Position numbers: made by a program | Assembly (NCBI GenBank): GCA_030429765.1 | Contig: JAUIER010000011.1 | Location: 40,187 to 104,186 of the forward strand | Source of the DNA: a bacterium | GTDB taxonomy: Bacteria; Omnitrophota; Gorgyraeia; Zapsychrales; Zapsychraceae | Length of the DNA stretch: 64,000 bases | Direction: 5' to 3' | In this document: positions 51,001 through 57,629 of the stretch, piece by piece | Position numbering within the stretch: position 1 is the first letter of the stretch | Layout: each line of letters opens with the position of its first letter

Positions 51001-54000
51001 GGTTGCAGATGCGTCGGCGCCGATTGCAGAACACGGGGCAATTCGTCCCGCATGGACTCGGATAAGTGACGGGATTCCGTCCGTGGATAGGTGATCAGTT
51101 TGTGTTTCTCGTAGAGGGCCTGGGCGTACTGCAGTGTAGTCTTGGCGGTGTATCCGAACTTTTCATTACACTCCTTCTGCAACAGCGTTAAATCATACAG
51201 TGATGACGGGCCGGTCTTACGCTTCTTCCGCTTGATCTGAGTGATCTTACCCGGCTGGCCCTCACATTTTTTCTTGAGCTTCTCAGCCGTACTTTTCGTC
51301 TCGATCTTGTAGCCGTTCTTGTTCTCCCATCGAAAATCCACGTCCCGCGCGTGCGCGTGAACCTCGTAATAATAAAACTTTTCAAACCCCTGAATCAGCT
51401 TGTGGCGCTCCACAATAAGTGCCAACGTCGGCGTCTGCACCCGGCCGACGGTATACAATTGACCGTGACGCACCGAATAGGCCCGTGTGGCATTCAGCCC
51501 GACCATCCAGTCGGCATACGCCCGGCATTGGGCTGAATATCCCAACTCATCAAATTCGTGGCCATCCGTCAGCTTGTCCAGCCCCTGCCGTATACTCGCG
51601 TCGGTCAGATCCGAGATCCACAACCGCTTAAACGGTTTGTCACACTTGGAATAACGATAGATCCAGCGAAAGATCAGCTCGCCCTCTCGCCCCGCGTCCG
51701 TCGCGTTGATAATCTCGTCGCAATCCTTGAACAATCGACTGATAATATCAAATTGCTTGCGTCCGCTGTCAATCGGCGCCAGCTGAAACTCGGCGGGGAT
51801 CATCGGCAATTGGGCAAAGTCCCATTTACCGCCCCAGTCGGCCGACATCACGGCCGGCTCGGCAATCGTAACCAGATGACCAAACGCCCAGGTCACCTGA
51901 TAGCCTTGACCTTCCAGCCATCCCTCCCGACGCTGATTCGCGCCCACCACCCGCGCGATATCACGCGCCACACTCGGTTTTTCGGCAATAATGACTTTCA
52001 TAAAGTTTGTCGGATTGATTCAATATGAACGCCCATTATACACAAAAAAACAATCATGATCATAATGATTGTTCTAAGTCGGTACATTATCGGCGCATTT
52101 GACTTTTGGGCGGGATCAGCTATACTCTCATCAGCTGATAATTCCTATCAGTTAGCCCCTGTTTCGTATGGTCACGATTCAGGGGCGCTTTTTTGTCTCC
52201 GGCTGACACTTCTTAATTTCTGAAGATTTTCCAATCCATTGACCTGCATCGCGTAAACACATTGCATGTACTCGCCCAGTTTTCCGGGCGGAAAGCCTTT
52301 GCGCTCAAACCAGATCAAATATTCTTCGGGCAAATCAATCAACCGTTGGCCTTTGTATTTGCCGAACGGCATGATCATATTCAGGGCCTGAAGAAAATAT
52401 TCTTCATCAAAAATGTGCTGACTAACATCTTCCATGATTAAAAACTACGACGGCATCTCCATCATTTGAGACACGCGGATTGTCCCGCCGTTCTGCAGAA
52501 ACGGATCAGATTGCGCGATCGTCACGGCTTCATCCATTGTCTCGGCCTTAACTATCGCAAATCCCTTCATCGCGTCGGGATTCGAATCCTCCGACACACC
52601 TTCCGACGTGACAATCTTTGACGCGGGCAACGGCGTTCCGGGATTAACGATTTTATCGCCCAGACTTTTGACCCACTCCTGCCATTGGGCCATCTGTGCC
52701 ATTCCCTCTTCCTTGGAAGCAGGCTGATTCCCGCCGTGATAGGCGATTAAATATTGCGGCATTTAGAAACTCCTTGATATCGTTTGATCTTTTGCTCCAA
52801 CTCCCGCCGGGATCACATTGATAATTACGGGAATAAATCCATCGATCTCAATATCTTCAAATTCACGATTTCCTAGAGGCGTAGCAACATCTATGCCTTG
52901 CCCACGGGATTCGATTGTCATTATACCTGGATTTAAATCGATACCACCTGGATTCTCGGGTTTTTCCAAATCTTTCGCCAACATCGCAGAATCTACAACT
53001 TTATTTGTAATATCTCGGAGCACAGTAAAAATTGCTTCTTCATGGTAATATTCTCCCAAAATTTTGTTCAGCACAGTAAAATCCGGTTCAGTCTCAACAT
53101 TGACAAATCCTTCCGGAGCATCCGTTGGAATAATATTTCTCATCGCGTCTTCACGTCGGAACCCACGCTTTTCCAGCGTGGATAAAACAATTTCCAGAAT
53201 CTCTTCCCAAGAGTGTCTATGTCTACCGGCGAACTCTACGACCAAAGGCTCACGCTGCTGTTTGATAGGGATATCCGCACGAACCATACGAAGAATTACA
53301 TCCCTCACATCTTCAACGGAAACCAAGGATACCGTTGCCCCTCGATAAGGTGTTATCTTTTTTCCAACCGGCCGTTCATTCGGATCAATAGCGGCATTAA
53401 TTAAGTTCAGCAAAAGTCCGGAATTGGAAGATCTATGCATTTCGGCACCAACAAGTCCCATCACCCTTAAAATAATGACATTCTTAATTCTCAACTGCTT
53501 GGACAACTTCAGCAACGTCCGGTCCATCAGCACTTTAGACATCGGATAGGAGTATGAAGCAAATTCTTGTTTGGCAAATTCTCCTGCCATTTGCCGCATA
53601 AACTCTCGTGGAGACTTCTTGGTTCTTCCTTCAGCAGCGATATACTGCTTAACATACGTTGCCGTTCGTTTAGCCATTCGTTCAACCCATGCATCGGCCT
53701 CGTCCGGTATTTTGTCAACGTCAAATGATGAAATGTATATCTTTCGCATCCCCAGATTTTCTTCCGTGGAAAGCACCAGAGACAGGGCTGGTCCAAATAT
53801 ATTGGACTCGAACATTTGAGCTGTTGCTTCGATATTGTCAGACCGAATTCCCGTACTACTGTCGGCCGCAATGTTCACCAAAACTTCGCGACCTTCCAGC
53901 AGAGCTCGCAGACCACTAAGATCCGAAAGATTTCCGGGTTTAATTGAAAACCGAGGGTATTCTTGTTCCATCTTTTGTGAACGACCCATTCGCGCTAATA

Positions 54001-57000
54001 CATGCACATCAGATTCTTTATATGCCAGATCGCGAGCAATCGTCGAACCCAGAAACCCATTGACTCCTGTAATCGCGATAGGTGGAATCTTGTCATATTC
54101 GTGCACCACAAACTCATCGTCTTGATCTGTTCGCTGAACAAGGCGTCGTTCCAGCTCGGCAAAATATCGATCTTCTTCTTCCTTAACGTCGTAACCCTCA
54201 GCTTCCAACGCAGCTAACATGCCGTTCACAAAACCGGCATATTGAACATGATGTCGAATCTGAAGCTCCCGCCCCTCATATGGCTGCCCATAGGGAGCTT
54301 TTGGAACAACAGTCACACGCCCGTCTTCCTGTAAGACAAATTCATCCTCTATACCGTTCAAAGGTGAAACAACGTCCACAGCCTTCCAAAGATTTGCTAC
54401 CAAATCCGGATCATACCCCTCATTAAAACCTTTTACAATCATACGTTGTTGATAATCCTGCCAGTCTAACCCCTTTCGAGAGAGATAATTAACCAATCCG
54501 GCCTCTTCAAATCCATCGCTCATCATATATAATAATTCAAGACGCGGTCCTTCACCCGTATTCCAGACCTTGAGATTCAAGCCAAATCGTCGGTTCACCT
54601 CTCCAATTACTTCATCATTCAGCAATGTTCGATAAAAAATTTCTTCTGTTCCGATATACCTGTTTCGAGTATCCGTGTCTACAATAACCAAACGCTCACT
54701 GTCCGCGTCTATAATCCCTTCATCATACAAATACTTTACAAAGTACACGGCCTGATCCATTGACTCAGAAATCGCCCGATTATTTCCCATGTTCGCCCAA
54801 ATACTATGAATACGACCGCTTAAATCTCCCCCCATAACATTCGCCATGGTTTTGGCCAATTCATATAGTGGACGCGCCCCTGTCTGTAGAAACACCAATT
54901 TGGGCGGACCAGATTCACCCATTCGTTGTCGCCCTTCCTCAAAAACATAGTCTAAAAATTGCTTAATGAGAACTCTGCGCTCAGGATCTACGCTGACAAT
55001 TACTTGCTTTGCAGCGTCGTAATCCTCTTGAAACCGTTCAACAAAAAACTGCGATTCTTCCGGGATGTGTTTTTGCATATCTAGAACACGCCTATCACGA
55101 CGAAACATCTCTTGCTCATTCAGACTGACCCGCGGTCGATTAGAAAGGTTTGGATCAACATCGAAGTATATTTCCGGCGTATCAAATTTGACGACTGGAG
55201 CTTCAATTTCTCCGGACCTTGTATACACAAACTGGTTGTTGGAGTAAGTCTGACTTGAAACTAAAACGTCGGCATATCCTGCAAAGTGACCAACAAATTC
55301 GTCGTCATTCCTGTTCAAAGCAAAAACATGCTTGTGATACTCGGGTCGAACATACTTCTCCAACAAATGCTGCTCCAGACCAGACTCATTGTCCCCGGAT
55401 TTCCACATCAATCCATAACCCGGAAACAAAATAATCACATCATTCCCCTTATCTACCAGACTATGAATTTTTTCAGCTACGTTGGATAGAATCCAACTCC
55501 CTCCCCCATGCGGATCCACTAACGCACTTTCATTCGGATCAAATAACACGATAGGACGTTGATGTGGGGTCTCCTTACTTCCTGTACTTGTACCTGTCAA
55601 TTCATTCCATCGCGCTTGCGCTTGCGCATTTTGACTTGAGGCCTGACTTTGAAGATTCTGAAATTCCTTGTCTCCCAGAATATTCCTAGCCATCTTAATT
55701 GTTTCCACATCAATTAAATCGGTTGTAATTACCCGATACAAGAATTGGTTGTACGCATCAATACTTGGAGCCAAATCTTTTACCCGGCTTACTACTTCGG
55801 GGGACATCGACTCTGGAACATACAACAAACTGGGCACCAAAAAGTAGTCAAAAAACATACCCGTTGCGACGTTCAGATCCTGCTGGGTATTTCGAAAAAG
55901 TTCTGCCAATTCTAATACGGTTTGTGGGGATATATCAGGACGCGTTCTTAAAATACGCCAAATATCAACTTTTAAAACCTTGGAGTTGGCAGCAAAGTAG
56001 CTTTTTGAGGGAATTCGTGCAATCTGCACAACAAAAGCATCCAGGACTGAAGAAATAAAGCGCGGATACTCAATAACCACATTCGTTAATTCCTGCATGA
56101 CAGCTCTTGAATCCATCCCCGGAGTCATTAACCGTTTGCGCAACAAAGCCACGCGTTGCTCAATCTCATCTGTACTGTCATCATCCCCGAACATCGCTCG
56201 ATCGATTTTCTGAGGAGAGAATTGAACCTCTACTCGATGCAAAGAATTATGGAGCGCATCAATATCCGGCAAATCATTTATTAATATTTTTCCACGCCAA
56301 TCTTCTATGGCGCCGCCCGAAAAATACTTTCGCGGGAGTGTCTGCCCTGAAGTCTCGTCATACTCTTCTTTGATGTAATTGTAAACTCCGCGTTCAAATG
56401 CCTTTATATACTGGGCATAAATCTTTTGGTTGATAAACTGATCATTAACATGAACACCTTGAGTCTTGTTTTGGTCGATATATACATGACCTAGCACACC
56501 ATCGCGTAATTTGCTCTTGTACCACGTCGCAAGAATCACAGAGTTGGTGATTTGACGTAAATTTGCAAATGTCCGACCCTGATTAACCTCACGTTCTATT
56601 TCCGGCAGGATAATCTCCCGAATCACATTCGAAGAAACCGCACTGAGCTTTTGGAGCTGATCGGCCTGAACGCCCCCCATACCATGATCCGAGCGACCTT
56701 GATTAGCTTCCAAAGTTAAATAATCTTCTTCTAGCAAGACGCGTAAACGACTCTCCATCAAGTACACATATTGACCTTGCTCATGCACAACCGCATACTC
56801 CGGAACAATCCAGACCTTGTTGAACGTGTTCATCGGGATTTCTGTTGTTCCATATGTTTCCAAGGCCCGTTGTTTAACACGTTTCCAAAATTCCTGCCCT
56901 AAATCATCTTCAGGATACATGAGTGATGCCGTCAACTGCTTGAGAATGTAGTCTTGAGCTAGAAGATCTCTGCCCATAGATGTCCGTCCAAAACCATCTG

Positions 57001-57629
57001 GGATAATTCGATTCGCCTCGATTGGAGACAGATTGACCCACATATCCTGCTCGGGAACAGTCAATGCGGCCATAAAATATTTGATTAACTTGACGGATTC
57101 ATCTTCTAAGGCTTGCCCCTGAAGTGCGTCTTCACCGGGATTAATTAGAAAATCAAATGTTAACGCCTCATCCGGACGGATCCGGATTCCTTGCAATACC
57201 GTGGGAGAAAAATCTTCCGACACACGTACACGTACTCCCGGTTTTGGGAGTTCCAACACAGTCTCCGCGCTGGCTTTATCCATAGTCCACACACATATGC
57301 CTAGACATAAAGATAATAATATTACCCTAAACATTTGAAAATGAGTAACTTGTGACTTTAATATTTTTAGCTTCATATACAAATGATCGATTCAAGCATG
57401 GATGCCCTTGCATCCATTCTTGAAAAACCTAGAACCTGTATTGAAACTAAAGTTGATGGTGCTTTTGGAAGGATTGGGGAATATTAGTACTACTAATATA
57501 ATATAGCACATTTTCTATTTACGGCCAAAAATTTTATCTGACCACCTGATTGAGTAATTTTATTGTAAATCCACAAAAAAGGGCAGCCGCTGGGCTGCCC
57601 TCTTTGTTTGTACTGCGGGGGGAAAATTA

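Follow-up and report, generated by a model that had tools for sequence, protein, structure and literature searches.

Why would a bacterium place ATP- or NAD-dependent enzymes behind signals that appear to send them out of the cytoplasm? The Omnitrophota, a widespread phylum of ultra-small bacteria that have not been cultivated, are suspected to live as predators or parasites, and what their large multi-enzyme proteins do, and where, is an acknowledged question. We address it here from a 64,000-nucleotide stretch of DNA from a member of this phylum (GenBank assembly GCA_030429765.1, contig JAUIER010000011.1, positions 40,187 to 104,186; hereafter the window), which carries on its minus strand two large open reading frames (ORFs), paralog A of 1539 amino acids (aa) and paralog B of 1025 aa (coordinates of these and other features are in Table 1). 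A preliminary description made from the sequence of the window had placed both ORFs correctly and had presented them as secreted paralogs that share an N-terminal domain and carry different enzymatic cores, in the manner of polymorphic effectors. We find that A and B belong to one family with constant ends, swappable internal cassettes and a boundary motif that is under selection at the protein level; the family is very large, restricted to Omnitrophota and apparently undescribed.

A BLASTP alignment of the two proteins joins residues 23–357 of A to residues 18–359 of B over 342 aa with 54% identity and 74% positives (expectation value, E, 3e-126), and the motifs that had been quoted for this region are found in both. 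Past the PRKYFSGG motif the two sequences are unrelated, as had been stated, save for one later C-terminal segment that had escaped attention; there, residues 1450–1525 of A align with residues 924–993 of B (30% identity, E 3e-6), centred on GGID[LM]N ... GF[IV]PVIIN[VI]xP. Also overlooked was a short motif, D-x-A-M, which both proteins carry at the boundaries of their variable, or cargo, regions. Neither A nor B matched anything but its partner in a tblastn search of the whole window, so there is no third copy of the N-domain in this stretch. The proposal of two different nucleotide-dependent cores stands, since Pfam recognises an Epimerase domain in A and an HATPase_c domain in B (E 2e-11 each) and nothing else in either protein. 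The companion claim of a GT-B-like segment in A (aa ~590–1100) we find unsupported: Pfam, PDB-sequence and word-indexed searches revealed no similarity to GT-B glycosyltransferase families, residues 395–1100 having no match among PDB sequences, residues 361–1100 none in Pfam (E ≤ 5) and residues 591–1095 no homologue in the word-indexed protein search.

The shared N-domain is about 320 aa long and begins with a conserved LPxPG. It had been called unrecognised, and comparisons with Pfam, NCBIfam, PDB sequences and PDB folds bear this out, giving no match and in particular none to a common known periplasmic domain. An AlphaFold2 model built from 32 sequences predicts a mixed alpha/beta domain (predicted local distance difference test score, pLDDT, 71; predicted template modelling score, pTM, 0.70) for which a Foldseek search of solved structures returned nothing significant (best E 0.27, template modelling (TM) score ≤ 0.16). 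The only matches that recurred in that search, none of them significant (E 0.7–4, TM score ≤ 0.14), were ClyA-type pore-forming toxins (NheA, MakB and MakE) and colicin Ia; we regard this resemblance of a predicted fold as a lead and not as evidence.

Exhaustive searching of 1.84 billion representative proteins with HMMER gave 8,383 matches to the N-domain at E ≤ 1e-3 and 6,751 at E ≤ 1e-30, and the names of the source organisms are nearly all Candidatus Omnitrophica or Omnitrophota. Among the 150 best matches the domain always occupies residues ~1–380 of proteins that range from 420 to 5312 aa. When one genome per GTDB species was searched, at least 582 N-domain loci were found, all of them in metagenome-assembled genomes of Omnitrophota (some auto-labelled 'Planctomycetales'). 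Several copies occur in a genome, and tandem arrays of three to four copies occur (loci L009, L020, L028 and L037). The word-indexed protein search had yielded, for two queries, nothing longer than 562 aa and 164 aa, but it is biased to short proteins, and truncation on short contigs adds to the effect, so the lengths it gives are not representative; the idea that family members are ~400 aa long is rejected by the 420–5312 aa seen in the loci and the exhaustive search, and ORFs that run off the fetched loci exceed 3690 aa.

The second segment common to A and B proved to be as much a family feature as the first. Its consensus spans about 60 residues, GGIDLNPxxLDLQIKRDGxGVPLP...GFxPVIINIxPVxNLPxLLG, and is followed by a short variable polar tail; the copy in A lacks the usual NLPLLLGL extension. 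With a hidden Markov model made from 49 seed sequences, this C-module was found in 73 of 108 locus-derived members, always 0–72 residues from the end, and in an independent set of representatives it stood at the very end in 115 of 146. Most of the misses are ORFs truncated by the edge of the fetched DNA; just seven complete ORFs are without the module, and for three of these (L027, L049 and L050) it lies in the next ORF past a frameshift. Conversely, C-modules without an N-domain are confined to ORFs cut by a locus edge and to split genes. This near-obligate co-occurrence indicates that head (N-domain) and tail (C-module) are tightly coupled. The C-module has no match in Pfam or NCBIfam. Modelled alone with AlphaFold2 (35 sequences) it yields no fold (pLDDT 62, pTM 0.17, essentially no secondary structure), and it is rich in proline with a borderline hydropathy (Kyte-Doolittle 1.5–1.6 over 19 aa). 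Neither model nor hydropathy supports a transmembrane helix or a beta-barrel, and we have set both aside; the predicted properties fit a docking or sorting peptide better than they fit a domain, a transmembrane helix or a barrel.

D-x-A-M, usually followed by L, V, I or M and then a small residue, is enriched eight- to nine-fold in the family. In the locus-derived set 139 copies were observed where shuffled sequences gave 18.2 ± 4.7, and in the independent set 222 where 24.4 ± 4.6 were expected; permuted control patterns occurred 12–28 times, with the exception of DA.M at 65. The copies in A (residues 394 and 1464) bracket all of its cargo, B has copies at 365, 423 and 938, a family member with two recognisable enzymes in tandem (L035, below) has one inside the 24-residue linker that joins them, and L009_3427 has six spaced 114–244 aa apart. 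Elsewhere in the window three ORFs have one copy each and the remainder have none. The codons used at the motif vary synonymously, hence the selection acts at the protein level and a DNA-level recombination site is rejected.

What is carried between these constant ends was surveyed by Pfam scans of 50 variable regions and 36 independent full-length representatives (86 members). The metabolic domains include PGK (phosphoglycerate kinase; E 1e-107), enolase, glutamate/alanine dehydrogenases (GDH), RmlD, epimerase, PGM/PMM (phosphoglucomutase), PGI, UDPGP, PPDK_N, ROK, GT2 and NUDIX; the signalling and regulatory ones are Response_reg (five REC domains), GGDEF, HATPase_c, PP2C and ABC1 kinase; and there are HEAT repeats, S-adenosylmethionine (SAM) methyltransferases, Metallophos, DnaJ and an M48 peptidase. 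Toxin-type cargo is rare, the sole case being a deaminase encoded by the ORF that follows a member split by a frameshift. The clearest example of the whole arrangement is L035 (4187..12637; 2817 aa), in which a complete PGK (residues 1682–2087) and a complete enolase (2112–2562) stand in tandem behind a signal peptide and N-domain; each can be aligned over its full length with bacterial enzymes of known structure, and the catalytic motifs SHRSGETED and KLNQIG are part of the match. The ~525-aa cassette of B is present twice in tandem in L021 (34–37% identity), and part of the orphan cargo region of A (residues 752–1118) recurs with ~30% identity in the cargo of L075; cassettes therefore move between paralogs. 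In L071 (9890..14575), Enolase_C (aa 936–1250) precedes Enolase_N (aa 1269–1363), either because their order is swapped or because these are two partial copies. Judged by sequence, the cargo is of cytoplasmic type and looks catalytically intact.

The same applies to the two cores in the window. The Epimerase match in A (PF01370, residues 1102–1219) covers profile positions 1–115 of 240, that is, the N-terminal half only, and the surrounding domain has both motifs of an extended short-chain dehydrogenase/reductase (SDR), TGVNGFLG at 1105 (TGxxGxxG) and YPMSK at 1279 (YxxxK). B has a G2 box (GTGVGL) by pattern, and an N-like NLVNNA and a G1-like DTAGG can be made out by reading the sequence rather than by scripted pattern. 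Both domains thus look competent to bind nucleotides. B has the HATPase_c domain of a sensor histidine kinase, placed after the signal peptide, but not the HisKA/DHp part: there is no HisKA match in Pfam and no H-box pattern (H-[DE]-hydrophobic) in residues 641–800 that could supply a phospho-accepting histidine, and its NCBIfam matches are weak and far below cut-off.

The N-termini of A (...DKASA|ETVLE) and B (...PSAFA|ESVLN) had been described as resembling cleavable signal peptides, and they conform to a pattern that runs through the family. Averaged over 89 members, the net charge ahead of the hydrophobic core is +3.1 (above zero in 88), the core has a mean Kyte-Doolittle hydropathy of 2.6, and the 20 residues past it have a charge of about 0; a helix-breaking PP and then AxA or AQA follow, and the conserved LPxPG begins some 5–8 residues further on. 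A cleaved Sec signal has just this textbook arrangement, which is the opposite of that predicted for a tether with its N-terminus out and its C-terminus in; with charge distributed in this way round the hydrophobic segment, a topology that keeps the cargo in the cytoplasm is disfavoured. If true, such export means that thousands of proteins put domains dependent on ATP, UTP, GTP, NAD or SAM beyond the cytoplasm. In A, an ATG two codons downstream of the TTG start (at 57376; MKLKILK...) is an equally plausible start.

Taken whole, the reading we favour, with a probability of about one half, is that these proteins are Sec-exported modular carriers whose cargo most plausibly acts inside another cell or on what that cell contains. 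Each consists of a Sec-type, apparently cleavable signal peptide, the ~320-aa N-domain, one to many cassettes, the ~60-residue C-module and a polar tail. The data show this layout, together with the strict coupling of its ends, the exchange of cassettes and the enrichment of D-x-A-M; what follows is interpretation. The polypeptide would probably be threaded out of the cytoplasm by Sec, after which the constant head and tail, possibly bound to each other or to one common partner, may serve as a common apparatus for its handling, whether this be retention, secretion or translocation; D-x-A-M would be the linker or processing site between modules. Omnitrophota have been proposed to be epibiotic predators or parasites (PMC10066038), and predator RNA has been observed inside prey cells (PMC13153191). 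Since the nucleotides that the cargo uses are absent outside an energised cytoplasm, and since these bacteria are thought to live on other cells in this way, the cargo is plausibly meant for another cell. Whichever the destination, be it envelope, surface or another cell, the carrier role itself is most likely.

Several points weigh against this reading. Action in another cell is a speculation by analogy, Sec export is predicted from sequence features, and D-x-A-M may be an inter-module linker instead of a site that is cut. The model of the N-domain has only moderate confidence. Distances between N-domains and between C-modules are correlated (rho 0.31, Mantel p 0.001), which shared ancestry could explain, and pairing of the two within genomes gave p 0.34 (n=14). 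Clustering of the neighbouring genes of 80 loci produced no conserved partner, whether protease, sortase, secretion system or immunity-like gene. Finally, it is hard to see what Receiver, GGDEF, DnaJ, PGK and enolase domains would do outside the cytoplasm, so that a location inside it must be taken seriously. We rank the resolutions of this conflict with action in another cell first, a compartment in the envelope or coat second, and a cytoplasmic location despite the signal features third.

The best surviving alternative, which we find possible if doubtful, is that the proteins are exported by Sec and kept by the producing cell as an enzyme scaffold of its envelope (in the periplasm, on the outer surface or in the Velamenicoccus 'coat'), with N-domain and C-module as anchoring ends and no injection at all. 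Their cargo would then work on metabolites from lysed or attached prey, or would moonlight as an adhesin, as surface enolase and PGK do elsewhere. The signal-peptide evidence suits this equally, the borderline-hydrophobic stretch of the C-module could associate with a membrane, and the 80 loci link no injection machinery to the family; however, the cofactors and partners on which Receiver, GGDEF, DnaJ, HATPase, SAM-methyltransferase and NAD-dependent domains rely are unexpected outside the cytoplasm, and the C-module is proline-rich and is predicted to be neither helix nor barrel.

Unlikely, in our estimate, is a metabolic or signalling scaffold that is tethered to the membrane and faces the cytoplasm, the hydrophobic N-terminus being left uncleaved or unused for export. 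Cargo so overwhelmingly cytoplasmic in type and seemingly intact in its catalytic residues would be at home there, and many long Omnitrophota proteins are read as membrane-anchored with cytoplasmic content in a 2026 preprint (10.64898/2026.06.07.730766). In 88 of 89 members, nevertheless, the positive charge stands ahead of the core and is absent past it, PP and AxA/AQA complete the signature of a cleaved Sec signal, and there is no second strong transmembrane segment to return the chain inward.

Polymorphic toxins of the Rhs, CDI and MafB type have a constant N-terminal trafficking region, a variable toxin tip at the C-terminus and an immunity gene downstream. The kinship with such effector families that had been suggested for A and B holds for a constant module with swappable enzymatic cargo, which is repeated across thousands of relatives; it fails in that the variable part is internal and the C-terminus is conserved as well. 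A classical family of this kind, with a trafficking N-domain, exchangeable toxic tips and immunity genes, would also account for the many paralogs per genome, and the ORF next to one split member does encode a MafB19/dCMP deaminase domain. We consider it very improbable all the same, for the extreme C-terminus is occupied by a conserved module, the cargo consists mainly of housekeeping-type enzymes and signalling domains and not of toxin families, and no small downstream gene is conserved, nothing dedicated or immunity-like recurring in the 80 loci. That the family consists of chimeric ORFs born of assembly or gene-calling errors in metagenome bins has a negligible chance of being right: some members are indeed split by frameshifts, but the tripartite architecture recurs in thousands of independent assemblies, and uninterrupted ORFs with it lie on contigs of up to ~2 Mb.

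Among known systems, the nearest analogue in logic to the carriers we favour is found in MARTX toxins, in which conserved N- and C-terminal regions flank a strain-variable array of effectors that need host cofactors, with short processing sites between them and secretion by a type I system. The likeness lies in constant ends, a swappable array and possible processing between modules, and there is no homology. Unlike MARTX toxins, the family has a Sec signal and cargo that is metabolic or signalling and not cytotoxic; A and B have no RTX match in Pfam at E ≤ 0.1, and neither the RTX or glycine-rich repeats that MARTX toxins have at both ends nor their cysteine protease, Peptidase_C80, which autoprocesses between effectors, is found in A or B or in the list of families from the census of 86 members, at the Pfam thresholds used. 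Cargo proteins of the type IX system, PEP-CTERM proteins and LPXTG proteins have a Sec signal at the N-terminus, variable cargo, and at the C-terminus a short conserved element that recurs, within one phylum, in proteins with little else in common; the present family is like them in these respects. The C-module differs from the type IX element in having no TIGR04183/Por_Secre_tail match and no predicted beta-sandwich, and from the PEP-CTERM and LPXTG elements in having no motif followed by transmembrane helix and basic tail and no sortase-like partner nearby; the constant N-domain is extra to all of these. Nor does it resemble the beta-barrel translocator or YadA-type anchor, with a final aromatic residue, of type V autotransporters (trimeric ones included), being ~60 aa long with no Pfam match, no beta structure (pTM 0.17) and variable polar tails.

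Giant proteins of Omnitrophota have themselves been catalogued. In two preprints (West-Roberts et al. 2023, 10.1101/2023.11.21.568195; 2026, 10.64898/2026.06.07.730766) they are credited with HATPase_c, methyltransferase, PGM/PMM, Response_reg, HEAT, NUDIX, PPDK_N, GGDEF and ROK domains and with signal-peptide or transmembrane topology, and the conflict between metabolic content and topology is noted explicitly for long proteins in the second of these (10.64898/2026.06.07.730766). Phylum, Pfam repertoire of the cargo and topology paradox are the same as here. The catalogues start at ≥10,000 aa (10.64898/2026.06.07.730766) and ≥30,000 aa (10.1101/2023.11.21.568195), however, which excludes A, B and the members of 420–5312 aa. 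The keyword-searched parts of both preprints hold no description of the head domain, the tail module or D-x-A-M, and a full-text literature search for the family's sequence motifs returned nothing. Multi-enzyme Omnitrophota proteins with this paradox are therefore known, and the definition of a family by head, tail and D-x-A-M appears to be new.

That definition (signal peptide, head domain, cassettes punctuated by D-x-A-M, tail module) gives annotators two new domain models for one huge family. Metabolic reconstructions in the style of KEGG may at present count PGK, enolase, PGM and PGI embedded in exported carriers as housekeeping genes. A specialist will be surprised to find complete glycolytic enzymes and receiver and GGDEF domains behind Sec signals in a family of ~8,400 clusters, and the presence of ATP- and NAD-dependent enzymes behind export signals becomes a set of testable matters: export, cutting at D-x-A-M, binding of head to tail, and arrival of cargo in prey. 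Going further, and into what we hold to be unlikely, head and tail might be two halves of a new delivery or display system specific to the phylum, in which, once exported by Sec, they work together: the tail docks into the head or a shared receptor, or else the head acts as a pore (compare its non-significant ClyA-type fold matches). Arrays of active cytoplasmic enzymes and signalling domains would in this way leave the predator and, cut at D-x-A-M into single enzymes, would reprogramme or harvest the metabolism of the attached host or prey. If so, thousands of 'hypothetical proteins' of Omnitrophota would make up an effector repertoire that can be recognised by its address label.

Table 1. 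Features of paralogs A and B and of other large or adjoining ORFs in the window (positions in the window; all residue numbers are those of the encoded protein).
Feature	Position	Strand	Remarks
A, whole ORF	52763..57382	-	1539 aa; TTG start at 57382
A, signal-peptide-like segment, aa 1-39	57266..57382	-	K/R-rich n-region, hydrophobic core, ASA|E
A, conserved N-domain, aa 40-357	56312..57265	-	LPxPG ... WVNLSP ... MGRDLLxQDYxLKQ ... FNKVWIVP ... LRQ ... PRKYFSGG
A, first D-x-A-M (DRAM, aa 394-397)	56192..56203	-	37 aa past the N-domain
A, cargo stretch without assignment, aa 398-1100	54083..56191	-	no Pfam, PDB or homologue match
A, extended-SDR (epimerase/dehydratase-like) cargo domain, aa 1102-1463	52994..54079	-	Pfam Epimerase; TGxxGxxG, YxxxK
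A, second D-x-A-M (DSAM, aa 1464-1467)	52982..52993	-	11 residues ahead of the C-module
A, conserved C-terminal module, aa 1479-1525	52808..52948	-	GGIDLNP ... GFIPVIINVIP
YCII-family gene, 105 aa	52445..52762	-	starts at the base adjoining the A stop codon
B, whole ORF	5732..8809	-	1025 aa
B, signal-peptide-like segment, aa 1-41	8687..8809	-	AFA|E
B, conserved N-domain, aa 42-359	7733..8686	-	shared with A
B, D-x-A-M motif 1 (DQAM, aa 365-368)	7706..7717	-	first of three copies
B, D-x-A-M motif 2 (DNAM, aa 423-426)	7532..7543	-	where the ~525-aa cassette begins
B, GHKL ATPase (HATPase_c) cargo domain, aa 802-932	6014..6406	-	PF02518, E 2e-11
B, D-x-A-M motif 3 (DKAM, aa 938-941)	5987..5998	-	5 residues ahead of the C-module
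B, conserved C-terminal module, aa 947-1003	5801..5971	-	GGIDMN ... GFVPVIINIAPIQNLPFILGL; 22-aa polar tail follows
Large ORF, 1666 aa	8909..13909	-	EF-hand-like Ca-binding repeats, Cys-rich repeats, C-terminal Peptidase_S8 (E 6.5e-52)
Large ORF, 2323 aa	13909..20880	-	no Pfam match
ORF of ≥977 aa, truncated by the start of the window	3..2933	-	hydrophobic N-terminus; weak BclA_C match below cut-off

In the 80 loci the only recurring neighbours of family genes are generic response regulators (14 loci) and ABC ATPases. A 'cyclase-toxin-like' neighbour had been reported for the window, but the genes that flank A and B encode KatG, a YCII protein, the S8 peptidase that has Ca-binding repeats, and a product of 2323 aa with no Pfam match. 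Downstream of A lies the YCII gene, whose position suggests co-transcription with A and which is not conserved beside other family members; downstream of B is a convergent DEAD-box helicase gene. The two large ORFs of 1666 and 2323 aa, directly upstream of B on the same strand, have signal-peptide-like N-termini, overlap stop to start at 13909 and end 99 bp from B; they lack the N-domain and have 0–1 D-x-A-M motifs. The S8 peptidase is a candidate processing enzyme.

A few members are interrupted by changes of frame. P0095 in L001 (6912..8127) ends right past FSGG at a run of eight G residues (TTT TCG GGG GGG GTA TGA), and deletion of one G joins it to the next ORF, which in the parent 247-kb contig is 886 aa long and has dCMP_cyt_deam_1/MafB19-deaminase domains; the run could reflect either phase variation or a sequencing error. 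Phase variation at this domain junction is rejected as a general feature, as A and B have no homopolymer there and a run of seven G residues is present at the same codons in 3 of 92 genes. Other members are split by a frameshift shortly past the N-domain (L002, 9998..14565) or further downstream (L027, L049 and L050), with the C-module then located in the next ORF; as the contig name of L002 hints at a long-read assembly, these splits may be indel errors.

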